From a virus: a DNA stretch of 53,290 bases. The translations under genes were made by a program, and so were the position numbers. A model generated the notes under the pieces. The model had not been told where the DNA came from, ran no database searches, and worked only from the letters and a program-made list of their open reading frames with translations. Shown here piece by piece: positions 1 to 53,290 of this stretch. Position 1 is the first letter of the stretch, and every line of letters starts with the position of its first letter. The stretch lies in the UHGV virus genome UHGV-0119950. One strand, 5' to 3'.

Positions 1-50
1 AAGCGCAGGCGCAGCGATAAAGGAAAAAGATGACGCAGTAATTTATTCAT
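1..50 (-). CDS. phoQ: sensor kinase PhoQ, first 16 codons only (gene runs off the window)
   Basis: Minus-strand ATG overlaps phoP stop (TAATG); translation [16 protein letters not shown] resembles PhoQ N-terminus as I recall it. Confidence 0.5.
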   Translation of the reverse strand, partial: MNKLLRHLFPLSLRLR

Positions 51-724
51 TAGCGCAGTTCGAACAGGTATCCCTGACCACGGACGGTGGTAATCACATC
101 ATCAGGATATCGCGCCTGAATTTTTTTGCGTAAGCGCCCCATTAATACATCAATGGTATGGCTTTCACGCAGTTCCGCATCCGGGTAGAGCTGTAGCATC
201 AACGAATCTTTGCTGACGACTTTGCCATTATTGCGGATCAGCGTTTCCATAATGGTGTATTCAAACGCCGTCAGTTTTATCACTTCATCATTTACGGACA
301 ATTCACGGCGGGAGAGATCCACCTGAAAAGGCGGAATAGAGATAACCTGCGAGGCCAGGCCGCTGTTGCGGCGCATTAACGCCTGCATACGCGCGACCAC
401 TTCTTCAATATGAAACGGTTTTGTCACGTAGTCGTCGGCGCCTGCGCTCAGCACTTCCACTTTATCCTGCCAGCCTTCACGGGCGGTTAATACCAGAACA
501 GGAAGGGAAACGTCATTGCTGCGCCAGCGGCGGATCAGCGAAAGCCCGTCTTCATCCGGGAGGCCTAAATCGACGATGGCGATGTCCGGCAGATGCTCGT
601 TAAGATAATAATCGGCTTCCTTTGCATCTTCTGCGTCATCAACCTGGTGCCCCAAATCCTGTAATTGAACCTTCAGGTGGTGGCGTAATAAGGCATTATC
701 TTCGACAACCAGTACGCGCATCAT
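50..724 (-). CDS. phoP: response regulator PhoP (OmpR family)
   Basis: 224 aa; near-identical over its length to E. coli/Salmonella PhoP as I recall them ([19 protein letters not shown]...[12 protein letters not shown]); receiver plus winged-helix domains. Confidence 0.95.
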
Positions 725-794: not shown

Positions 795-2081
795 TTAAAT
801 AACTTTTTTCATACTCCCTCGCCCGTGGGGGCGTCCTGGGGGCAGTGCTGTCGGCATCTGATTGTTCAGCATGTTGACCTGATCCTGGTTCATGTCATCA
901 ATCCACTTGGAGTAAACCTCGTACACCATACGCGCATCTTCATGTCCCATCTGGCTGGCAATGAACGACGGGTTCGCTCCGGCCATCAGCGTCCAGCAGG
1001 CGTATGTGTGGCGCGACTGATATGGATTGCGCTTACGTATACCTGAAAGTTTAGTCCCACGTTTCCAGCCATACGAAATCGAGTCCTTGGAAAAGTAACC
1101 GCCTTTCGTTGATGAGTATGTTGTCGGTGAAAAAACGAAGCGAAGATATTGCTGCTCAGTTTTTCCGATCTCACGATGATGAAACTGAATTTCCTGTTTT
1201 GGACTGTTCCCGGTGATTTCGTATTGCTCCAGCAGAGCATCATGAGCAGGTTGCAGCAACGTTATCGTCCTTATCCCGGCATCTGTTTTAGGGGGTACAA
1301 ATACTCGCTTGTTCGTCAAATTTCTGGATACGTGGATTTCACCTTTTACCAAATCAATATCTTCCCATGCCAGTGCGCATATCTCGCCCGGCCTCATCCC
1401 TGTATGTACCGCAATAATGATGATTAATGCCTGGCTACGGGGAAGGGCGGCTATCAGTGCCTGGTACTCATGAAGTAAAAGTGGGTCGGGATCATTTTTA
1501 GATAACTTGAGTCGCGACACTCCTTCATAAGGAGCATGCAATATAAACTGGCTTCGGTTTGCAAGCTTCAGCATTTCTGATAAAACAGCCATCTGTTTAT
1601 TGACTGTTGAGGGCGCTCGCCCATTTTTGATGCGGTTTGGTATTGAAGGGTTGAAAACTTCCCCGGTCAGGAGTTCTTTGCGGTAATTCAGAATATCTGC
1701 GTGCTGAATATCAACCAGGCGTGTGTTCTCGCCCACTACTCGTTTCAGGGTTTTAACGACTGATGTGATGGATAGTAAAGTGGCTTCAGATACCTCCAGT
1801 GACTTTGTGTCTGTAAAAAAATCACTCAGTTCTTTGAATGTAGAGATCCGTTTTGTGGACGAAAATTTCTTAAGAGCTTTTGATTCCGGGAAACGATCTG
1901 CGTAGTCGAACTTACCGAGTTGTATCTCACTCACAATTGCCGCGCGCAGATTGCCCGCTTTTTTAATGTTGCTACTGTTGACAACCCAACCCTGGAGAAC
2001 TTCGCGGCAACGAATGCCGCGATAGATAAATGTGATCCTGATTTTTCCGTTATGCAGTTCAACACCAGTCGGATATTTCAT
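795..2081 (-). CDS. int: phage integrase, tyrosine recombinase
   Basis: 428 aa; C-terminal catalytic motifs (HTGMRPGE, RHTYACW...GHEDARMVYEVY); followed by xis on same strand; sits at prophage edge. Confidence 0.9.
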   Translation of the reverse strand: MKYPTGVELHNGKIRITFIYRGIRCREVLQGWVVNSSNIKKAGNLRAAIVSEIQLGKFDYADRFPESKALKKFSSTKRISTFKELSDFFTDTKSLEVSEATLLSITSVVKTLKRVVGENTRLVDIQHADILNYRKELLTGEVFNPSIPNRIKNGRAPSTVNKQMAVLSEMLKLANRSQFILHAPYEGVSRLKLSKNDPDPLLLHEYQALIAALPRSQALIIIIAVHTGMRPGEICALAWEDIDLVKGEIHVSRNLTNKRVFVPPKTDAGIRTITLLQPAHDALLEQYEITGNSPKQEIQFHHREIGKTEQQYLRFVFSPTTYSSTKGGYFSKDSISYGWKRGTKLSGIRKRNPYQSRHTYACWTLMAGANPSFIASQMGHEDARMVYEVYSKWIDDMNQDQVNMLNNQMPTALPPGRPHGRGSMKKVI

Positions 2082-10043: not shown

Positions 10044-10463
10044 TTATTGCGATTCTCCGTCACCCTTAATCCGTCGCCCCATGTACTTCGCGTACAGCTC
10101 GTCGAGCTCCTTCAGTCGCAGAGATACGATCCGCAACATGTTCTGCTGCTCTTCTTCCGGCAGCTGGCGATAGAGTTCCAGCAGGCGCTGCTCGTCAGGC
10201 TTCATACCATCTTTCTCGCCGACATCTTCCCCGAGCAGCCAGGCGACCGAAACACCAACAGCATCGGCTATAGCCAGTGCTGATTTTTTGCTAATAACGC
10301 CTTTTTTAAACCAGCTATTGACCGCCTGAGGCGAGACTCCGGCTATTCGCGCCATATCTGCTTTGGTAATGCCTCTGGCATAGACCTCGTTGAGTCGCGC
10401 TATCAATGCTTTGTTGGGTTCTTCTTTTCTCATTCTCTCATTGTAAATGGTTAGTTTACACAC
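10044..10463 (-). CDS. prophage repressor, CI-like HTH, no S24 peptidase domain
   Basis: 139 aa; HTH (ITKADMARIAGVSPQAVNSWFKKG); divergent from cro-like gene; too short for a LexA-like cleavage domain. Confidence 0.75.
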   Translation of the reverse strand: MCKLTIYNERMRKEEPNKALIARLNEVYARGITKADMARIAGVSPQAVNSWFKKGVISKKSALAIADAVGVSVAWLLGEDVGEKDGMKPDEQRLLELYRQLPEEEQQNMLRIVSLRLKELDELYAKYMGRRIKGDGESQ

Positions 10464-20342: not shown

Positions 20343-20362
20343 TACTGTATAAAAATACAGTA
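20343..20362. promoter_or_regulatory. LexA box (SOS operator)
   Basis: TACTGTATAAAAATACAGTA, exact CTGT-N8-ACAG palindrome, about 20 bp upstream of dinI-like start. Confidence 0.75.
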
Positions 20363-20380
20363 TACGCAATGGAGGCCACT

Positions 20381-20614
20381 ATGAAAGTTGAGTTAACTAT
20401 TGATCGAACAAAGAAACTTCCTGATGGTGCAGTGCCAGCACTTGAAAAAGAATTGCTTAAACGACTGAATAATCAGTATGAGAATTGCAGCCTGACAATC
20501 CGTCGCGCCGGATCAGATGGACTGAGCGTTTTCGGTGGCGATAAGGACGATAAAAAGAAAATTGAAAAGATCCTCCAGGAGACCTGGGAAAGCGCTGACG
20601 ACTGGTTTTACTAA
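20381..20614 (+). CDS. dinI: DinI-family protein
   Basis: MKVELTIDRTKKLP...KIEKILQETWESADDWFY matches E. coli DinI as I recall it (C-terminal ILQETWESADDWF); RBS GGAGG; LexA box upstream. Confidence 0.8.
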   Translation: MKVELTIDRTKKLPDGAVPALEKELLKRLNNQYENCSLTIRRAGSDGLSVFGGDKDDKKKIEKILQETWESADDWFY

Positions 20615-45051: not shown

Positions 45052-45432
45052 ATGTTCAATCAAGATAAATACCTTTCGGTCAGATGGCTGAAGGGCGGTC
45101 GCGCTTACCCTGAACTTGACTGTTTCGGCATTGTGAATGAGGTGCGTCGCGATCTGGGGCTTCATGAGTGGCCGGATTTCGCCGGAGTGACGAAAGATAG
45201 TGGAGGGCTTAATCGAGAAGCGAGGAAACTGATGCTTTCCCTACAACGCTGCGAGCCATGTGAAGGTGCGGGTGTTGCCTGCTATTCAGGCTCAACTGTT
45301 ACGCATGTCGGCGTTGTCGTGGTGCTTAATGGCCGTCTGCATGTGGCCGAATGCAACCCTAAATCCAACGTTTCTTTTACGCCGGTGGCGCAGTTTGTTC
45401 GCCGCTTCGTTAAAGTGGAGTTCTGGAAGTGA
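45052..45432 (+). CDS. tail protein with NlpC/P60-like Cys/His pattern (gpK-like position)
   Basis: 126 aa; LDCFGIV and THVGVV resemble C40 peptidase Cys and His contexts. Confidence 0.45.
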   Translation: MFNQDKYLSVRWLKGGRAYPELDCFGIVNEVRRDLGLHEWPDFAGVTKDSGGLNREARKLMLSLQRCEPCEGAGVACYSGSTVTHVGVVVVLNGRLHVAECNPKSNVSFTPVAQFVRRFVKVEFWK

Positions 45433-48146
45433 CCATCAGAATTTATCCTTCCCGGTTACCCGGCGAGCCGCTGGAAACGCATGAACATGGTGCGGTGACT
45501 ATTCATCAGTGGATGGCGCGGAATGTTGAAAATTACCGCGCTGACATGAAGCATCCGATCGCCATTGAAGTGGACGGCGTGAATATCCCGGCTGCTGCAT
45601 GGTTTGATTATGCGATCAGCCCGAAAAGTGATGTGCGCATTTATCCGGTCCCTCATGGCGCCGTTGCGCTGGCGTGGATTGCCGTTGCTGTTTCGGTCGC
45701 ATCTGTTGCTTATGCGCTGTTCTTTGCGCCTGGCGCATCAGATCCCGGTGGTTTCTCTTCGTCGACAGGCGATTCACTGGACGTTAACCCGGCAAAAGCG
45801 AACCGTGCAAAGCTGGGTGATCCAATTCGCGAGTTGTTCGGACGCCGCCGAATTTACCCCGATTACGTAGTGCAACCGGTAACCCGCTTCAGCCCGGACG
45901 ATCCGACAGTGATGACCGTTGAAATGTTCGTTGCTCTGGGATTCGGACAATTTTCATTCGGCGAAGGGGATATGCGCGTCGGCGCCACGCCAGTTTCATC
46001 GCTTGGTGATGGTTTCGCATACACCGTTTTTCAGCCGGGCCAGAATGTGGCTGGTGATCGCCGTAGTGAAAACTGGTTTAACTCTACCGAGGTTGGCGGG
46101 ACGTCATCGGGTGCCGGGCTGGATATGGCCCAGACCGCACCGGATACGGATGATGTGTTAGCGCAGTCACTGACGGTGTCGGGAAGCACAATCACGTTTA
46201 ACGGATTAAGCGCTGATGATGATACTGCAACAAACGAGCTGCCTGATTCGTGGATTGCTGGCGCAACGGTTGAGCTAATCGTACCCGATCAGTTTGTTGT
46301 TACCAATGATGGCGCATACAGCCGCATTACCAGTGACAATCTGGCGGAAATAGCCCCTTACGTCGGAATGCCGGTAACGCTCTGGTACAACAGCGTCGAC
46401 TACAGTCTGTTTATCGCTTCGTATACGCCGCATGCAGACGCGACAGAGGAAGAAGAGGAAGTCACCGCGTCGATAACGCTGGCTTATGAGAGTGAAACCG
46501 GCGCGCCTTTTACGGGTATTCCTGAGGGGTATATCAGGCTTTCCGTTTCTCACGCTGGGTATCAGTACAAAATTTTCGATGTGGACGGCACCAGTGTAAC
46601 TCTTCAACGCTTGATTGATGGTGTTGTCGATAACACATGGCCGGGTTTCGTGGCGCGCACCGTGCTTGATTTTGAGGCATCTGGCGTTAACCAGAACGAC
46701 TCCTGGATGGGCCCGTTTCTGGCATGCCCGGATAATGAAACCATCGACATGTTTGAAGTGAATTTCTTCTTCCCGAATGGCATTTGCGGATACGACAAAA
46801 AAGGGAGAAAACAAAACAGAACGGTTCGCTGGGAAGTTCAGTACCGCGTTTATGGCTCTGGTTCGGGATGGATGAGCAAAACCGGTTCGTATAACACAAA
46901 AAATATTAATGGCCTTGGTTTCACTGAGCGCATCACGCTGAGTTCTCCCGGCCTTGTTGAAGTGCGGTGCCGACGCACTAACGAACAGGGGCAGGATAAC
47001 AGCCGCGATAATATGTACTGGCAATCATTGCGTGGCCGCCTGCTGACCAGACCGTCATCGTACGCTGGCGTAACGACTATGGGGGTCACGGTGGAAACCG
47101 GCGGCAAGCTGGCGGCGCAGTCCGATCGCCGGGTGAACGTGGTAGCCACAAGGATTTACGACACTGGCGCGGCGCGCAGCATATCCGGCGCGCTGTACCA
47201 CGTTGGTAACTCGTTGGGGCTGGATATGGACACCGACGCCATTAATGCGCTGGAAAGCGCGTACTGGACGCCTGACAATGAGTTTTTTGACTTCGAGACG
47301 ACCGATAGTACATCTGCGCTGGAGGTTTTACAGAAGATCGCCAACGCCGGGAAAAGCTATTTTCTGCTGGCAGACGGGCTTGCCTCGGTTGCGCGCGAAG
47401 GCGTTAAGCCCTGGTCGGGGGTTATCAGTCCGCATGAGATGACCGAGGATCTGCAAACCGCGTTTGTGGCTCCTTCTGACGACGACTATGACGGCGTGGA
47501 TGTTACGTATATCAACGGAACGACATGGGCGGAGGAAACGGTACAGTGCCGGACACCGGATAATCCAACGCCCGTAAAAATCGAAGACTATACGCTTGAT
47601 GGCGTGCTAGACCGGGACCGGGCATATCAGATCGGCATGCGGCGGCTGATTAAGTACCTACAGCAACGGCTGACGCATACGACATTAACCGAACTGGACG
47701 CCCTTTGCTATAACGTCGGCGACCGCATAGTGCTGACAGACGATATTCCTGGCAATAAAACCATTTCCTGTCTGGTTGATGAAATGACAACCGAAAATGC
47801 GCTGACAACATTCACGGTAACCGAGCCATTGGATTGGAGTTATGAAAACCCGCGAGTGATCATCCGATTTCAGGACGGGACCGCATCATCTCTTCTTACG
47901 GCAATCAGGGCTGGTGATTATCAGGTGACGGTGCGATACCTGAATGAATTTGCTGAAATCGTCCTCAATGATCCGGCTATTGAGCCACCACGCCTTATTT
48001 TTTGCGACTCTTCGCGCGTTGGCTATAACGCCATTATCTCTGAGATCGCGCCTCAATCTGATGGCACATGCCAGATAACGGCGAAACAGTATAAACCCAG
48101 CTTCTACGATTACGACAATGCCACTTATCCCGGCAACGTCGTATAA
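45429..48146 (+). CDS. tail tip / host specificity protein (gpI-like N-terminus fused to gpJ-like body)
   Basis: 905 aa; N-terminal region with hydrophobic segment as in lambda gpI; large size; followed by terminator and tailspike gene. Confidence 0.65.
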   Translation: MTIRIYPSRLPGEPLETHEHGAVTIHQWMARNVENYRADMKHPIAIEVDGVNIPAAAWFDYAISPKSDVRIYPVPHGAVALAWIAVAVSVASVAYALFFAPGASDPGGFSSSTGDSLDVNPAKANRAKLGDPIRELFGRRRIYPDYVVQPVTRFSPDDPTVMTVEMFVALGFGQFSFGEGDMRVGATPVSSLGDGFAYTVFQPGQNVAGDRRSENWFNSTEVGGTSSGAGLDMAQTAPDTDDVLAQSLTVSGSTITFNGLSADDDTATNELPDSWIAGATVELIVPDQFVVTNDGAYSRITSDNLAEIAPYVGMPVTLWYNSVDYSLFIASYTPHADATEEEEEVTASITLAYESETGAPFTGIPEGYIRLSVSHAGYQYKIFDVDGTSVTLQRLIDGVVDNTWPGFVARTVLDFEASGVNQNDSWMGPFLACPDNETIDMFEVNFFFPNGICGYDKKGRKQNRTVRWEVQYRVYGSGSGWMSKTGSYNTKNINGLGFTERITLSSPGLVEVRCRRTNEQGQDNSRDNMYWQSLRGRLLTRPSSYAGVTTMGVTVETGGKLAAQSDRRVNVVATRIYDTGAARSISGALYHVGNSLGLDMDTDAINALESAYWTPDNEFFDFETTDSTSALEVLQKIANAGKSYFLLADGLASVAREGVKPWSGVISPHEMTEDLQTAFVAPSDDDYDGVDVTYINGTTWAEETVQCRTPDNPTPVKIEDYTLDGVLDRDRAYQIGMRRLIKYLQQRLTHTTLTELDALCYNVGDRIVLTDDIPGNKTISCLVDEMTTENALTTFTVTEPLDWSYENPRVIIRFQDGTASSLLTAIRAGDYQVTVRYLNEFAEIVLNDPAIEPPRLIFCDSSRVGYNAIISEIAPQSDGTCQITAKQYKPSFYDYDNATYPGNVV

Positions 48147-48166
48147 CAACAATCTCTCCAATACAG

Positions 48167-48188
48167 ACCCGCTCCGGCGGGTTTTTTC
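48167..48188 (+). terminator. rho-independent terminator
   Basis: ACCCGC-TCCG-GCGGGT hairpin followed by TTTTTT. Confidence 0.6.
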
Positions 48189-48203
48189 GTTTATGAGGCC
48201 CAT

Positions 48204-50165
48204 ATGACGACTTACAACACCGGCAATCCGCTGGGGTCTGCTGCTGCAAAAGATTTGTACGATAACGCCCAGAACCTTGATCACCTTTCAAATGACCAGG
48301 AAAATGAGCTATGGCCTGATCGTTTTGGTAAAAATCGCCTTACATGGCACGGAATGGAAGAGCGTTATAAAACAGCGCTCGCAAACCTCGGTTTAAATCC
48401 TGTCGGGACATTTCAGGGCGGGGCGGTTATTAATTCCGCCGGTGACATCATCCAGGATGAAACAACAGGCGCATGGTATCGCTGGGATGATCTCACGACC
48501 CTGCCGAAAACCGTTCCATCTGGTTCTACTCCAGATTCATCCGGCGGCACAGGTGTCGGAAAATGGCTGGCCGTAGATGTCAGCGATGTGTTGAGAAAAC
48601 AACTTGCTGAAGAAGGAAGTCAGGTTCTCATTTCTGGTGAAACCGCTGACGATGTGGCTCTTGCTTCAAAAACGGCTAAACTTTTATCACAGTATTCACA
48701 TGTTCGTAGTTATTCTGATGATAGCGAAAAAATACTTAATATCTTTGATAATGAAAATTGCTCTCTCGAAGGTGGAGTGTACTACTTAAATGATTCCTTC
48801 GACTTCATAGGTAATAAAAATATTAGAGTTAATAAAGACACGACAATTAATGTAACCGGAGAAATAGATCAACTATTTAGATTCCTTGGTCATGTGGCAT
48901 GGGATGGGTTAGGTAAGCTTACTATTAATGCAAATCATTTTGACAAGCCTGACAGAACTGAGTCTATTCTTTGCTTTCCAAATTATATCCCAACCCTTAA
49001 TAATATTGATATCCATGGAGCTAACGGGCTTTCTGTTCTGGTCGGAATGCCTAGTTTTGGACCCGGAGCACCTGTTGCACAAGGTATCGGATATATAAAA
49101 AATGTACGTACATTTGATTGTGGAAAGGGGGTGCATGTATATGGTAATGTTAATAAAGATACCACAATTATTACAGAGAATCTTTATACCGATAATTTAA
49201 CTGGTTATCTGAATGGCAATGGAAACGGTGGCGGCGGAAATACTTTTTATCTTTCGTATCATCGCCAGGCTAAAAACATCGGTGGATACTTTGAGCATCA
49301 TCCTGACAGCTATGGATCAAATATCAACAGGAGTCTTTATGGAGCCTACGAGGGTGGATGGTTTCAAGGGGCTGATGGAACTCAGTCGCGGGGCCCAACT
49401 TTTGGTGAGGATCTCGAGTATGGTGCGATATATGGCGGAGGTGTTTCAAGAAATTGTGGCTTTGCTGCAATTTCCGCTGACATCAGAAAATCAGATGGCT
49501 CATATCCGATTTCTAGAGTTTTAATTGACGGGTGGACTGCTATAGAGTGTGGTAGAACTATATATTCTCAGGCGCAAGATCTCAGTTTCGGAAATATTCA
49601 CACAAAGGAATCTAAGTCTGGTGATTTTTTGATAAGGATTAATGGTGCAACTCCTAAATCAGTTAAGCAAACTGGTGTGGTAACAGCGTTTAATGGAACA
49701 TCGTCGACAAAACCTACTCTTATTTGGGCGGATAAGACCACATCTTTGTATCTGATTCCTGAACAGATAGTCTCTGATGATACCGTTAACATTAACGTGC
49801 CTGTAGTAGCTGATAACTCAACATCCACAGGATCGGAAATAAATATAGGAACCCAGTATCCCATTGTTACTCAAGATTATATAATCCCGAACATGCGTAG
49901 AGTAACGGAGGTTGATATGTCTTTAGTTTCATCAGTCATAACACTCAGACTTCCAGCAGCAAATCTAAGCAATATAAAAGGTATGCAGCATAAAATTTAT
50001 GTGAGAGGTGGCAATGGAACAAAAATATTACGAATTACGGTTAATAATGCGGATGGTACAATAAATGGAGCCACCGGATACATTGATTTTACACCACAAG
50101 CAGGATCTGTGCGTGTTATTGATTGCCTGAACAAAGGTTCAGGCAATTACCTTGTAACCACGTAA
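48204..50165 (+). CDS. tailspike / tail fibre protein with AT-rich C-terminal receptor-binding module
   Basis: 653 aa; N-terminal part at backbone GC, C-terminal about 520 aa AT-rich, Asn/Gly/Thr-rich as in beta-helical tailspikes. Confidence 0.65.
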   Translation: MTTYNTGNPLGSAAAKDLYDNAQNLDHLSNDQENELWPDRFGKNRLTWHGMEERYKTALANLGLNPVGTFQGGAVINSAGDIIQDETTGAWYRWDDLTTLPKTVPSGSTPDSSGGTGVGKWLAVDVSDVLRKQLAEEGSQVLISGETADDVALASKTAKLLSQYSHVRSYSDDSEKILNIFDNENCSLEGGVYYLNDSFDFIGNKNIRVNKDTTINVTGEIDQLFRFLGHVAWDGLGKLTINANHFDKPDRTESILCFPNYIPTLNNIDIHGANGLSVLVGMPSFGPGAPVAQGIGYIKNVRTFDCGKGVHVYGNVNKDTTIITENLYTDNLTGYLNGNGNGGGGNTFYLSYHRQAKNIGGYFEHHPDSYGSNINRSLYGAYEGGWFQGADGTQSRGPTFGEDLEYGAIYGGGVSRNCGFAAISADIRKSDGSYPISRVLIDGWTAIECGRTIYSQAQDLSFGNIHTKESKSGDFLIRINGATPKSVKQTGVVTAFNGTSSTKPTLIWADKTTSLYLIPEQIVSDDTVNINVPVVADNSTSTGSEINIGTQYPIVTQDYIIPNMRRVTEVDMSLVSSVITLRLPAANLSNIKGMQHKIYVRGGNGTKILRITVNNADGTINGATGYIDFTPQAGSVRVIDCLNKGSGNYLVTT

Positions 50166-50176
50166 TGCCGATTATT

Positions 50177-51262
50177 TTACGTATTTACGATATTTTTCTT
50201 AACTTTTGCAGCGCGCGGCGCTAAATGCCGCGCCACTTTCCTTGAAGGTTCTTCTACAATGTGGAAAAGTATATGCGAAATGGCGAAACTTACGCCAACA
50301 ATCAACAAAACATTTGAGAATCCAAGTTTAGGATTATAAAATGGCACGGGAAGGTATTTTTTAAGAAGTACAGTTATTACTATTGTATGTACAAGATAAA
50401 GCGAATAAGAAACGTTGCCCATCCAGTCAAGGATTTTATTTAATTTTATCTCTCTTGTTGTTTCGAATATTGAAAGAGAAAGCAAAAGCATAAAAGCATA
50501 AACACCACAATTTAGCAATCCGTGACCGCCATTATATCCAGACATATAGAAGAATATAAATGCAAAAACAGAAATAAAGAGTAACGGCGCTGATATATTT
50601 TTGAAAGAGTGAATTTTTGCATAGTTATAGATCTGATAGATAACCATCCCAGCGACGAACTCAAGTAGCATTGGCGATGCGAACAGTTTTAGCACCCATG
50701 GGGCGCTAGGGTCGTTTAATGTTGAATATCCACTAAGATTAATCTCACCATTATATAGTATTCCCAAAATAGATACTGAAGCAATTATTATTGCAGTGCT
50801 AATATAAAATCTATTCTTCCAGGAAATCGACATCGCAAATGAAAATATGATGTAAAAAATTATCTCATACGTCAGAGTCCAGGCAGTTGATATCACCGAA
50901 TAACCGAACCAAGGGGCTGATTTCTCAAAGTTTAAGTTAATAAAGAAAAGGGCTTTTAGATAATTAATATCTATCGGCTTTGTGAATATTAATGCGCATG
51001 ACACCAGACATATAAAATAAACAGGGTATAATCTAAAAAAACGCTTCACAATAAATGAACGAACAGAGGAGTCCTTTTCTGTTGACAACATGATTACAAA
51101 TCCACTTATCATGAAAAAAAGATCCACTCCTATGTATCCATAGTTAAACAATATGTTACCCAAATTGCTCTGAGCATAAATATTGTTCAATTCTCCACGG
51201 GCATGATATAAGACGACAAGCAAAGCAGCTATTCCACGGAGGTATTGCAAAGAATAAAGCAT
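50177..51262 (-). CDS. acyltransferase family 3 membrane protein (O-antigen acetylase-like)
   Basis: 361 aa, many transmembrane segments; N-terminal LRGIAALLVVLYHA signature; AT-rich; convergent with tailspike. Confidence 0.75.
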   Translation of the reverse strand: MLYSLQYLRGIAALLVVLYHARGELNNIYAQSNLGNILFNYGYIGVDLFFMISGFVIMLSTEKDSSVRSFIVKRFFRLYPVYFICLVSCALIFTKPIDINYLKALFFINLNFEKSAPWFGYSVISTAWTLTYEIIFYIIFSFAMSISWKNRFYISTAIIIASVSILGILYNGEINLSGYSTLNDPSAPWVLKLFASPMLLEFVAGMVIYQIYNYAKIHSFKNISAPLLFISVFAFIFFYMSGYNGGHGLLNCGVYAFMLLLSLSIFETTREIKLNKILDWMGNVSYSLYLVHTIVITVLLKKYLPVPFYNPKLGFSNVLLIVGVSFAISHILFHIVEEPSRKVARHLAPRAAKVKKNIVNT

Positions 51263-51515
51263 TTTATTAGCCTTGGTTGTTTATTTTTTAATAGTAAGAA
51301 ATTTATCAATTCTAGCATTCATCCCGCTTGTGAGCGACAATTTTGTTAACATTATGTCATTGTGATGGGTGCGCATTTAAAAAATCATTACTGGTGGTTG
51401 CCTGCTGCTGACTTCCCACCTGACCAATCACCCATAAAACTAAATTTCACCTCCCGCCAGTCACTTACTGTTTCATTCACTCTTAGGGGCTTGATTGCTG
51501 CCACCGATGCAATAA

Positions 51516-51535
51516 TACTGTATGTATAGACAGTG
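51516..51535. promoter_or_regulatory. LexA box upstream of umuD
   Basis: TACTGTATGTATAGACAGTG, exact CTGT-N8-ACAG, 18 bp upstream of the umuD-like start. Confidence 0.7.
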
Positions 51536-51552
51536 TCATTGAGGTGATTATC

Positions 51553-51972
51553 ATGCAGTTTTTCACGCCTACAGAACCACGCCAGATAGTGTCGCTCCCA
51601 ATGTTTAGTGATCTTGTGCAATGCGGGTTTCCTTCGCCAGCCGCAGATTACGTTGAGTCGCGTATAGACCTTAACGAATTGCTGGTGCGGCACCCAAGCG
51701 CGACGTATTTCGTAAAGTCCACTGGAGATTCTATGCGTGATGCTGGAATCGGCGAGGGCGATTTGTTGGTAGTCGACAGTTCACGAAAAGCAGGGCATGG
51801 AGACATTGTCATTGCAGCGGTCGATGGTGAGTTCACAGTTAAGCGCCTGTTGCTGCATCCGGTTGTCATGCTAAAGCCTGAAAACTCTGTGTATAAACCA
51901 ATCATGATTGGGAGTGAAGACAATCTGGAGGTTTTTGGCGTCGTAACTTACATCGTGAAGTCTGCTGACTGA
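51553..51972 (+). CDS. umuD: UmuD-like protein (S24 peptidase, pol V accessory subunit)
   Basis: [18 protein letters not shown]...[13 protein letters not shown]...[17 protein letters not shown] matches E. coli UmuD as I recall it; RBS GAGGTG. Confidence 0.85.
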
Positions 51973-51974
51973 GT

Positions 51975-53240
51975 ATGTTTGCGCTCGTGGATGTGAACAG
52001 TTTTTATGCGAGCTGTGAAACGGTATTCAGGCCAGACCTCAAAGGAAGGCCGGTAGTCGTTCTCTCTAACAACGATGGCTGTGTCATTGCGCGTTCGGCA
52101 GCAGCGAAGCCCTTTGTGAAAATGGGGGAGCCCTATTTCAAACAAAAAGAGACTTTTCGCCGTCACGGCATCGTCGCGTTCTCCAGTAACTATGAGCTTT
52201 ACGCTGATATGTCGAACCGCGTAATGACAACGCTGGAAGAAATGAGTCCTCGCGTCGAAATTTACAGCATAGACGAGGCATTTTGCGATCTTACTGGTGT
52301 GAGAAACTGCCGTGACCTTACTGAGTTTGGCCGGGAGATCCGCACTACAGTATTACAGCGTACACATCTCACCGTCGGTGTCGGTATTGCGCAGACAAAA
52401 ACCCTCGCGAAACTGGCTAACTATGCGGCAAAGAAGTGGCAACGACAGACTGGCGGCGTTGTTGATTTATCGAACCTTGATCGTCAGCGTAAACTCATGG
52501 CAGTACTGCCTGTTGATGATGTATGGGGTATCGGGCGACGCATTGGCAAGAAACTTCAGGCGATGGGCATCAAAACTGCTCTTGACCTGGCTGATACAGA
52601 TGGCCGGTTTATCAGGAAGCATTTCAATATTGTGCTCGAAAGAACGGTACGCGAGCTGCGTGGTGAGCCGTGTCTGGAACTGGAAGAGTTTGCACCAGTA
52701 AAGCAGGAGATCGTCTGCTCACGCTCTTTCAGTGGTCGTATCACTGCTTACGAAGAGATACGCCAGGCGATATGCAGCTACGCATCACGCGCAGCGGAAA
52801 AGTTACGGGGCGAGCATCAGTATTGCCGGTTTATCTCCGCGTTCGTGAAGACAAGCCCGTTTGCACTGAACGAACCGTATTACGGCAACAGTGCCTCTGT
52901 GAAGCTTCTGACCCCGACGCAGGACAGCCGGGACATTATCGACGCGGCCACGCGATGCCTGGATGCTGTCTGGAAAGACGGACACAGGTATCAGAAGGCT
53001 GGTGTGATGCTTGGTGACTTCTTCAGCCAGGGCGTGGCGCAACTAAATCTGTTTGATGACAACGCACCGCGCGCTGGTAGCGAAAAACTGATGGAAGTGC
53101 TGGATCATCTCAATGCCAAAGACGGCAGAGGAACACTGTATTTCGCAGGGCAGGGCATACAACAGCAATGGCAGATGAAACGGGAGATGCTCTCACCGCG
53201 ATATACCACTCGATATGAAGACCTTTTATGTGTTAAGTGA
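51975..53240 (+). CDS. umuC: UmuC-like Y-family DNA polymerase (pol V catalytic subunit)
   Basis: 421 aa; MFALVDVNSFYASCETVFRPDL...SIDEAF typical of UmuC; follows umuD by 2 bp. Confidence 0.9.
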   Translation: MFALVDVNSFYASCETVFRPDLKGRPVVVLSNNDGCVIARSAAAKPFVKMGEPYFKQKETFRRHGIVAFSSNYELYADMSNRVMTTLEEMSPRVEIYSIDEAFCDLTGVRNCRDLTEFGREIRTTVLQRTHLTVGVGIAQTKTLAKLANYAAKKWQRQTGGVVDLSNLDRQRKLMAVLPVDDVWGIGRRIGKKLQAMGIKTALDLADTDGRFIRKHFNIVLERTVRELRGEPCLELEEFAPVKQEIVCSRSFSGRITAYEEIRQAICSYASRAAEKLRGEHQYCRFISAFVKTSPFALNEPYYGNSASVKLLTPTQDSRDIIDAATRCLDAVWKDGHRYQKAGVMLGDFFSQGVAQLNLFDDNAPRAGSEKLMEVLDHLNAKDGRGTLYFAGQGIQQQWQMKREMLSPRYTTRYEDLLCVK

Positions 53241-53290
53241 AAAAAGTGTCTGTCGTAAATAGTATCTGCCCGGCATGGCCCATCAATGTG

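Follow-up and report, generated by a model that had tools for sequence, protein, structure and literature searches.

A umuDC operon lies inside the attachment sites of a prophage inserted between phoP and purB in Citrobacter koseri

Results

The locus described here occupies the right end of the window, that is, the whole stretch of 53,290 nucleotides that was analysed, and it has to be read together with the chromosomal flank and integrase region at the left end. The features concerned are:

50-724, minus strand: host phoP, left chromosomal flank (NCBIfam NF008078, 475 bits against a cutoff of 336)
757-771, unstranded: attL core TAACGCTGATTCTGT, 15 bp, beside phoP and int, with an exact second copy in contig L001
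795-2081, minus strand: tyrosine integrase with an arm-binding domain (Pfam Arm-DNA-bind_2 and Phage_integrase)
826-844, plus strand: two T(G)GGGGC motifs of the P' arm, putative arm-type Int sites by motif count
48204-50165, plus strand: tailspike (Pfam Tail_spike_N; segment comparison)
50177-51262, minus strand: acyltransferase, Acyl_transf_3 (Pfam PF01757), 35% GC, divergent from umuDC
51263-51393, unstranded: variable part of the spacer, a swapped-module junction; no sibling homology left of about 51394-51431
51394-51515, plus strand: promoter region of umuDC, belonging to the umuDC block and conserved by nucleotide identity with siblings
51516-51535, plus strand: LexA box TACTGTATGTATAGACAGTG, 17 nt 5' of the umuD ATG (consensus scan)
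51553-51972, plus strand: umuD, 139 aa, ATG start (Pfam, NCBIfam and structure-sequence alignment)
51975-53240, plus strand: umuC, 421 aa (Pfam, NCBIfam and motif check)
53241-53290, plus strand: start of the conserved post-umuC segment, which runs on into the P arm and attR past the window

The umuDC operon

The first-pass annotation had described a complete umuD-umuC operon behind a consensus LexA box, and profile matches bear this out. UmuD matched NCBIfam NF007621 (Pol V autoproteolytic subunit; 162.1 bits against a cutoff of 110) and Pfam Peptidase_S24 (PF00717; 97 bits), and E. coli UmuD (PDB 8gmt_B) could be aligned end to end with the open reading frame at 51553-51972 (E = 1.3e-59), Cys24-Gly25, Ser60 and Lys97 being kept at the aligned positions. 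From work on E. coli, we take the first pair to be the cleavage site and the other two residues to be the catalytic dyad. An alternative umuD start, GTG, is found at 51544. UmuC matched NCBIfam NF002955 (positions 1-421/422; 856.8 bits against a cutoff of 431), has all of the Pfam domains IMS, IMS_HHH, IMS_C and DUF4113, and keeps the acidic residues D6 and D100-E101, the latter inside SIDEAF and equivalent to D101/E102 of E. coli, since the phage protein is one residue shorter upstream. These residues are presumably catalytic, and QLNLF at 356-360 is presumably the beta-clamp-binding motif. The genes are umuD and umuC: both reading frames are full length, their catalytic, cleavage and clamp-binding motifs are complete, and the NCBIfam cutoffs are exceeded about 1.5-fold by UmuD and about 2-fold by UmuC. 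In the comparison with enterobacterial umuDC, the proteins are 84-89% identical and the DNA 70-76%, and this stronger conservation of the proteins indicates purifying selection.

The LexA box agrees with the consensus at 17 of 20 positions (three mismatches) and its CTGT-N8-ACAG is intact; no match at that stringency appeared in 100 shuffles of the window, the chance expectation being 0. Homology upstream of the genes with other enterobacterial umuDC loci begins at this same box. The operon has its own operator as well as a conserved upstream region. A simple promoter scan gave no convincing sigma-70 promoter overlapping the box, its sole plus-strand match placing a -10 on the start codon, and a simple scan detected no intrinsic terminator 3' of umuC. 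The umuDC operon presumably encodes a LexA-repressed Pol V.

The region left of umuDC

Between the acyltransferase and the LexA box lie 253 bp (51263-51515) with 39% GC, against 51% in the phage body, in agreement with the AT-rich non-coding gap of about 250 bp noted earlier. The right part of this spacer, 51394-51515, is 78-81% identical at the nucleotide level in the loci L096-L105 and falls inside a block of about 91% identity in L106 and L107. Further left, the tailspike shares with sibling prophages only its N-terminal part, about 19% of its length, and the next slot, filled here by an acyltransferase that probably modifies O-antigen, holds other acyltransferases or gtrA/gtrB-like genes in the siblings. 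Tailspike and O-antigen genes thus form a low-GC module that is swapped among siblings. The GC content of umuDC (49-52%) is that of the phage body, whereas the DNA to its left has 35-39%; the GC step at the spacer is therefore explained by the swapping in of the tailspike/acyltransferase module.

Attachment sites and bounds of the prophage

The absence of an attR repeat from the window, reported in the first-pass annotation, was correct: right of 44714 the window contains nothing within three mismatches of the attL core, and the stretch from the tail genes to the window end has no third copy at that limit. The window simply stops too early, attR lying about 190 nt further on, some 240 bp downstream of the umuC stop. 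It was read from two other assemblies, L001 and L002, which are identical to the window wherever they overlap it (L001, 100% over 45429-53290). Past the window end, L001 continues from umuC into a conserved attachment arm, a second TAACGCTGATTCTGT and then purB. The attR core is an exact 15/15 copy (L001:11507-11521), within a match to attL of 22/25 when extended; extrapolated to window coordinates, the P arm would occupy 53300-53480 and the attR core 53481-53495. The right boundary of the prophage is this second core, past umuC, and the element runs from 757-771 to there. The boundary had been placed earlier, as probable, in 51263-51515, with an att repeat right of umuC named as the result that would refute it; this repeat is such a result, and the position has to be abandoned. 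Cargo status had been left open at that time, and umuDC lies between attL and attR.

The integrase is about 50% identical to those of Rac and PHB10. Four T(T/A)GGGGC repeats are found in the P arm right of umuC and two more beside int. Of the 13 plus-strand copies of this type of motif in 53.7 kb, six are no more than about 170 bp away from one or the other att core. The arm of about 180 bp between umuC and the core is 84-97% identical in other prophages or remnants at the site, including two without umuDC (L004 and L006). At one variable position the core has C in both attL and attR here and A in attB, a difference that needs heteroduplex repair or a host polymorphism. On excision, the attP junction would read umuC, P arm, TAACGCTGATT(C)TGT, int. 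This reconstructed junction had no matches in IMG/VR and JGI metagenomes, where absence says little, and the conserved P-arm sequence had none in IMG/VR.

Host locus and empty sites

A protein identical to the PhoP of the window is present in Citrobacter koseri genomes (PhoP, 224 aa; PhoQ, 487 aa). Three loci with identical PhoP (L003, L010 and L012), which represent 13 or more of the 25 contigs examined, show purB, 170 bp and phoP, with no umuDC; their empty attB carries TAACGCTGATTATGT, and the sequence equals the one left of attL, the core and the one right of attR. The occurrence of umuDC at this locus in phage-free relatives, which would have marked it as host DNA, was not found. Several different remnants occupy the same phoP-purB site (L004, L006, L007 and L011), which is a hot spot. 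Megablast of the right end against the phage collection and 5,426 E. coli genomes returned only distant umuDC matches of about 74%, from which it follows that the host is not E. coli. In the literature, nothing relevant was found on a phoP-purB prophage, on C. koseri prophages with phoP or on C. koseri umuC, and no C. koseri record was among the listed matches of the scan of species-representative genomes for umuDC.

Read in the sense of phoP, the att core TAACGCTGATTCTGT contains the -10 region of the autoregulated phoP promoter. Around attL and the empty attB, simple scans for promoters and terminators gave no useful information.

Sibling prophages and known phages

The umuDC genes are present in all ten distinct sibling contexts that share a 126-aa tail protein (90.6-92% nucleotide identity). 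Six of these contexts reach past umuC, and all six show the post-umuC segment (96%) and then the arm (93-97%) immediately after it; purB then appears in each of the four that are long enough. Divergence from the siblings is about 9% for umuDC, 4-7% for the phage gene J and 2% for the host flank. The umuDC block (51394/51431-53253, 91%) recurs at the end of a sibling prophage that is integrated elsewhere in the chromosome (L106, L107).

Among phages, the closest UmuC proteins are those of Klebsiella phage ST846-OXA48phi9.2 (90%) and Enterobacter phage CobraSix (87%), followed by those of E. coli phage PHB10 (85%) and Salmonella phage vB_SosS_Oslo (84.6%); in Oslo and PHB10 the gene order is tail fiber, umuD, umuC, int. 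Among the matches listed for species-representative genomes, no copy was closer, amino acid identity being at most 89% and nucleotide identity 65-76%. Relatives are encoded in at least 587 IMG/VR contigs, and in 70 of the best 80 of these umuC lies 5 kb or less from a contig end. When the 24.5-kb late region was compared by megablast with the phage collection, the whole phage had no close relative there, and the best matches were of about 80% over terminase and capsid genes of Klebsiella phages.

Discussion

The main finding of this work concerns the umuDC operon at the right end of the window. We are confident that it belongs, as a conserved accessory module, to a lambda-like temperate siphophage inserted between phoP and purB of C. 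koseri. The operon lies within the att bounds and is absent from empty attB; in the siblings it is linked to the phage, and the same arrangement is already known in several related enterobacterial phages. Its slot, between the tail-fiber/serotype-conversion genes and attP, is the equivalent of the lambda b region, and this position next to attP makes umuDC the last gene pair before attR in the prophage.

From the features of the locus we infer LexA binding, expression, polymerase activity, a benefit to the phage and excision of the element. If the operon works as in E. coli, the LexA of the host would bind the box at 51516-51535 in the lysogen and repress umuDC. DNA damage would give active RecA*, self-cleavage of LexA and transcription of umuDC; the Ser60/Lys97 dyad of UmuD would then cut at Cys24-Gly25 to yield UmuD', and UmuD'2C (Pol V) would carry out error-prone translesion synthesis. 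The outcome would be damage tolerance and SOS mutagenesis for the lysogen, and possibly for the replicating phage genome after induction.

The cargo might nevertheless not work as a LexA-controlled Pol V, being a decaying passenger or an operon that is regulated in another way, for instance silenced or driven by read-through from neighboring promoters. The simple scans, with no clear sigma-70 promoter or terminator, are consistent with such a situation, as is a PhoP-box promoter at attR pointing antisense into umuC. We consider it unlikely, because decay is at odds with full-length reading frames that hold every catalytic, cleavage and clamp-binding motif, with NCBIfam scores well over the cutoffs (about 1.5-fold for UmuD and 2-fold for UmuC) and with the purifying selection that 84-89% amino acid against 70-76% nucleotide identity points to, while the LexA box stands exactly where the conserved upstream homology of enterobacterial umuDC starts.

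A composite origin, in which umuDC and the P arm are left over from an earlier element that used this attB, or form a cassette with mobility of its own, and the present phage integrated alongside, would leave umuDC inside the att-bounded island yet unpackaged. The different remnants at this hot spot would suit such a history, and so would the left edge of the umuDC block (about 51394-51431), which is a recombination junction. However, the element has neither an internal att core nor a second arm, direct or inverted repeats flanking umuDC were looked for and none was found, and all ten siblings keep umuDC with differing tail modules, the arm adjoining it wherever the locus is long enough. Since the umuDC block is also found at the end of a sibling prophage integrated elsewhere and virion-derived phages show the same gene order, we regard a composite origin as very improbable. 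Least credible of all is the view of umuDC as a chromosomal locus of C. koseri, with a prophage that ends in the spacer 51263-51515, for the GC step there (35-39% on the left, 49-52% in umuDC), the chromosomal umuDC homologues of many Enterobacteriaceae and a window without an internal att copy, which would favor it, are outweighed by empty sites without umuDC, by attR and a phage arm right of umuC, by the swapped low-GC tailspike/acyltransferase module as the source of the GC step, and by a umuDC divergence from the siblings of about 9%, where the host flanks differ by 2%.

With umuDC read as phage cargo, the genes should be annotated as such. Pol V capacity, which means damage tolerance and SOS mutagenesis, antibiotic-induced mutagenesis included, would then be spread horizontally, in C. 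koseri and related Enterobacteriaceae, by a common temperate phage family. Besides umuDC, those phages carry O-antigen-modifying genes and a dinI homologue under LexA control.

The integration site deserves separate comment. Because the att core coincides with the phoP -10 region, lysogeny separates phoPQ from the PhoP box, a physical separation that can be read directly in the arrangement of the sequence. It is conceivable, though in our view rather doubtful, that the phage family as such uses this -10 region as its attB, and that lysogeny also cuts phoPQ off from its regulation and leaves an intact PhoP-activated promoter at attR that fires into the right arm of the prophage, antisense to umuDC. 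The phoPQ genes, a virulence and Mg2+-sensing regulator, would then be left to expression from phage DNA or to read-through from int, and PhoP signalling would be cross-wired with phage-borne SOS mutagenesis. Integration into the phoP promoter is the more unusual point of this locus, and in about half of the sampled strains it could change how a major virulence regulator is controlled.

A umuDC operon on a phage will not surprise specialists, to whom such operons are familiar from plasmids, ICEs and phages. The orthologues mucAB, impAB, samAB and rumAB of plasmids and ICEs are examples of mobile elements with an SOS-type Y-family polymerase operon. Prophages of Acinetobacter carry umuDC (PMC3978071), and so does an IncHI2 plasmid (PMC12137576); the UmuC of the Acinetobacter phages is only 35-40% identical to that of the window, and both vehicle and lineage differ. 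The chromosomal operon of E. coli likewise consists of two genes closely preceded by a LexA box and encodes a 139-aa UmuD (about 69% identical), but the operon of the window lies in a prophage beside attR and not at the chromosomal umuDC locus, and nucleotide identity is only about 74% with the three atypical E. coli genomes that gave a match, the standard E. coli umuDC giving no megablast match. The attachment system resembles that of lambda in its arm-binding tyrosine integrase beside attL, the identical short core at both ends and the motifs in both arms; unlike lambda-type att sites in a tRNA gene or neutral intergenic DNA, its core lies in the -10 of the phoP promoter. A further likeness is to the temperate enterobacterial siphophages Oslo, PHB10, vB_EclS_CobraSix, ST846-OXA48phi9.2 and Cronobacter phage ENT39118, whose UmuC is 76-90% identical and which share the position of umuDC after the tail-fiber genes and before att/int; in PHB10 a related integrase (51%) is followed, as in the window, by recT and recE. 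The DNA identity with these phages is only about 71-74%, and the host C. koseri, the phoP-promoter site and the rest of the genome set the prophage described here apart from them.

The umuDC operon and its probable SOS control

At the right edge of the window, the first-pass annotation had described a umuD-umuC operon with a LexA box behind an AT-rich spacer, and this is borne out by the open reading frames, the protein models, the box itself and the GC content.

Features of the prophage (window numbering; the last two are extrapolated from L001, a contig identical to the window over the overlap and running past its right end)
757-771: attL core, the same 15-mer as attR, single copy in the window
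795-2081, minus strand: tyrosine integrase (int) with arm-binding domain
10044-10463, minus strand: CI-like repressor, 139 aa; HTH only (HTH_3 / Phage_CI_repr), without a peptidase S24 domain
20343-20362: second LexA box TACTGTATAAAAATACAGTA, near-consensus and better than the umuDC box, 6 nt 5' of the dinI homologue
20369-20614: DinI homologue, 81 aa, PF06183
50177-51262, minus strand: acyltransferase gene, divergent from umuDC
51516-51535: LexA box TACTGTATGTATAGACAGTG, 17 nt 5' of the umuD ATG; 17/20 consensus positions, CTGT-N8-ACAG intact
51553-51972: umuD, 139 aa; Peptidase_S24; NCBIfam Pol V autoproteolytic subunit model, 162 bits (cutoff 110)
51975-53240: umuC, 421 aa; full-length UmuC model match, 857 bits (cutoff 431)
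53322-53371 (L001:11348-11397): T(T/A/G)GGGGC repeats of the P arm
about 53481-53495 (L001:11507-11521): attR core TAACGCTGATTCTGT

The two genes are co-oriented and 2 nt apart. UmuD aligns with E. coli UmuD (PDB 8gmt_B) over residues 1-137 at about 69% identity and retains the Cys24-Gly25 cleavage site and the Ser60/Lys97 dyad, while UmuC, composed of IMS, IMS_HHH, IMS_C and DUF4113 domains, retains D6, the acidic pair in SIDEAF and the clamp-binding motif QLNLF. The LexA box, separated from the divergent acyltransferase gene by a 253-bp spacer of 39% GC, was equalled in none of 100 shuffled windows; simple scans revealed no convincing sigma-70 promoter or terminator for umuDC.

The Pol V of E. 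coli is the established paradigm for control by LexA, RecA* and UmuD. By analogy, the operon would be repressed by host LexA in the lysogen and de-repressed upon DNA damage, UmuD would be cut at Cys24-Gly25 with promotion by RecA*, and UmuD'2C would then perform mutagenic translesion synthesis. Two accessory units of the prophage, dinI and umuDC, are preceded by LexA boxes, and in E. coli DinI modulates RecA-mediated UmuD processing. Since a LexA-boxed DinI homologue accompanies umuDC, the phage may contribute its own small SOS module. As the CI-like repressor has no S24 domain, SOS induction of the prophage, if any, would probably proceed via an antirepressor rather than through autocleavage of the repressor.

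The right end of the prophage

The first-pass annotation favored a prophage boundary at 51263-51515, with umuDC as host flank, and left open that the operon is cargo. It could not see attR because this site falls outside the window, which ends 50 nt past the umuC stop and holds no additional core copy with up to three mismatches to the right of 44714. A look-up with the exact UmuC sequence returned L001 (a 518-kb metagenome contig) and L002, each 100% identical to the window across the overlap, and attR was read from these sister assemblies. In both, umuC is followed by about 60 nt, a T(T/A)GGGGC-rich segment of about 180 bp, the core, a perfect PhoP box and the purB stop codon, beyond which lie purB, hflD, mnmA, nudJ, rluE and icd. 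The attL core is located 33 nt 5' of the phoP ATG, at a distance of 24 nt from the int stop codon, and the extended match between attL and attR covers 22 of 25 positions. An att core thus sits to the right of umuC, which the annotation itself had named as the sign of cargo, and a boundary at 51263-51515 is refuted. Searches of public data (IMG/VR, JGI metagenomes) yielded no excised attP form.

The segment between umuC and the core (the P arm) recurs at 84-97% identity in remnants without umuDC, directly 3' of a different acyltransferase (L004) or of a terminase fragment (L006, L007). Of the 13 plus-strand T(T/A/G)GGGGC copies in 53.7 kb, four fall in this segment, and two more lie across the core, within the 3' end of int (826-844); judging from this layout, the repeats are probably arm-type integrase binding sites. 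Given this layout and the presence of the arm in remnants devoid of umuDC, the right neighbor of the operon is phage DNA, an attachment arm and not host sequence. A second P-arm repeat, CT(T)GATATTGT, occurs in two copies.

Many public assemblies encode the identical PhoP protein (1,509 index blocks), and the 25 longest contigs with it were surveyed. In at least 13 of them purB and phoP are 170 bp apart (L003, L010, L012 and similar places), and the empty-site sequence corresponds to the left side of attL, the core and the right side of attR. These phage-free strains carry no umuDC at phoP-purB, contrary to a host-flank origin. Prophages with the same 428-aa integrase were found in L005, L008 and L009, and remnants in L004, L006, L007 and L011. 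The site is a hot spot, with a full prophage or a deletion remnant in about half of the contigs read; remnants keep attL, those checked (L004, L006, L007) also keep the P arm and attR, and one holds a type I restriction HsdR-N-like gene and an S24 repressor. Because the identical PhoP occurs in published Citrobacter koseri genomes (AP023452, PMC7729419; GCA_003184045, PMC6908497), and with flanks 97-98% identical, the host would be C. koseri.

Sibling prophages and module exchange

A look-up of the 126-aa tail protein (45052-45432) gave ten distinct sibling contexts (L096-L105), all carrying a umuD-umuC that is 90.6-92% identical to the window at the nucleotide level. Six of these loci extend beyond umuC, and there the post-umuC segment (96%) and the arm (93-97%) directly adjoin; purB comes next in the four long enough to show it. 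Divergence from the siblings is about 9% for umuDC, 4-7% for phage gene J and 2% for the host flank; GC content is 49-52% in umuDC, 51% in the phage body and 35-41% in the tailspike and acyltransferase module. No transposon-type repeats flanking umuDC were found. Taken together, the att bounds, the empty sites and the linkage to the phage strongly support umuDC as prophage cargo rather than host flank.

The interval between gene J and umuDC is exchanged among siblings: the tailspike is common only over its N-terminal 19% or so, and the acyltransferase slot holds other acyltransferases or gtrA/gtrB-like glucosylation genes. The conserved umuDC block starts at about 51394-51431, within the spacer, so that the junction sensed by the first reading is a module-exchange junction inside the phage and not the prophage end. 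In two IMG/VR contigs (L106, L107) the block 51394/51431-53253 (91%) terminates a sibling prophage that adjoins a TonB-dependent receptor gene, a different chromosomal site. A low-GC cassette with the tailspike C-terminus and minus-strand O-antigen-modification genes spans 48204-51393 in the window, where it carries an Acyl_transf_3 gene, and about 13100-18900 in L096-L105; its swapping among otherwise about 94% identical prophages suggests exchange of matched receptor and serotype-conversion modules.

The phoP promoter as integration site

The finding of umuDC is in itself ordinary, and the interest of this prophage comes mostly from its integration in the phoP promoter. In phoP orientation, the empty attB (L003:5830-6000) comprises the PhoP box GGTTTAcgaaaTGTTTA (GGTTTACGAAATGTTTA), 12 nt, CATAAT, about 45 nt and ATG, exactly the 'architecture I' of the phoP promoter in Salmonella, where one direct PhoP box precedes the -10 by 12 nt (PMC3335776). 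The att core includes this -10 hexamer (attL at 725-800), and in all lysogens and remnants examined phoP keeps the core alone, with phage DNA upstream and the PhoP box separated; the hexamer becomes CACAAT, or CAGAAT in this window. Within about 870 bp 5' of phoP in the window there is no PhoP-box-like site with up to two mismatches, and the interval from int to phoP showed no terminator. The perfect PhoP box retained at attR (L001:11533-11549) faces the prophage arm, antisense to umuC; no terminator-like site intervenes. The arrangement may alter phoPQ autoregulation or give rise to an antisense transcript; the literature searched contains no paper describing it.

At core position 768 (equivalents in L001-L012 and L097-L104), every empty attB site has A and most attL copies have G; this prophage has C at attL as well as attR, and other attR copies have A or G. 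Heteroduplex resolution within the overlap region, or different attP alleles of the phage, could account for this variation.

Comparison with known phages and bacterial genomes

No close relative of the whole phage was found in the phage collection. Its UmuC has homologues in Klebsiella phage ST846-OXA48phi9.2 (90% identity), Enterobacter phage CobraSix (87%), E. coli phage PHB10 (85%), Salmonella phage vB_SosS_Oslo (84.6%) and Cronobacter phage ENT39118 (76%). Among the matches listed in species-representative bacterial genomes, the best copies reach 89% at the amino acid and 65-76% at the nucleotide level, none closer than the phage copies; at these loci, DNA homology starts at or a few nt from the LexA box in most cases and stops just inside the umuC 3' end. 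ST846-OXA48phi9.2 (L093) and PHB10 (L094) each have a SRAP (YedK, SOS-response-associated peptidase) gene a few genes away from umuDC, which hints at a recurrent DNA-damage-tolerance gene neighborhood beside att in these phages.

The annotation of Oslo runs from tail fibre J through two tail genes to umuD, umuC and integrase; in PHB10, the tail fibre, umuD, umuC and a few small genes precede an integrase 51% identical to that of the window, beyond which come recT and recE, an order also seen at the window's left end. Relatives occur on at least 587 IMG/VR contigs, and in 70 of the best 80 umuC is within 5 kb of the contig end. In view of these gene orders and this prevalence, a prophage umuDC in this slot is a known, common arrangement, to which the window adds another example.
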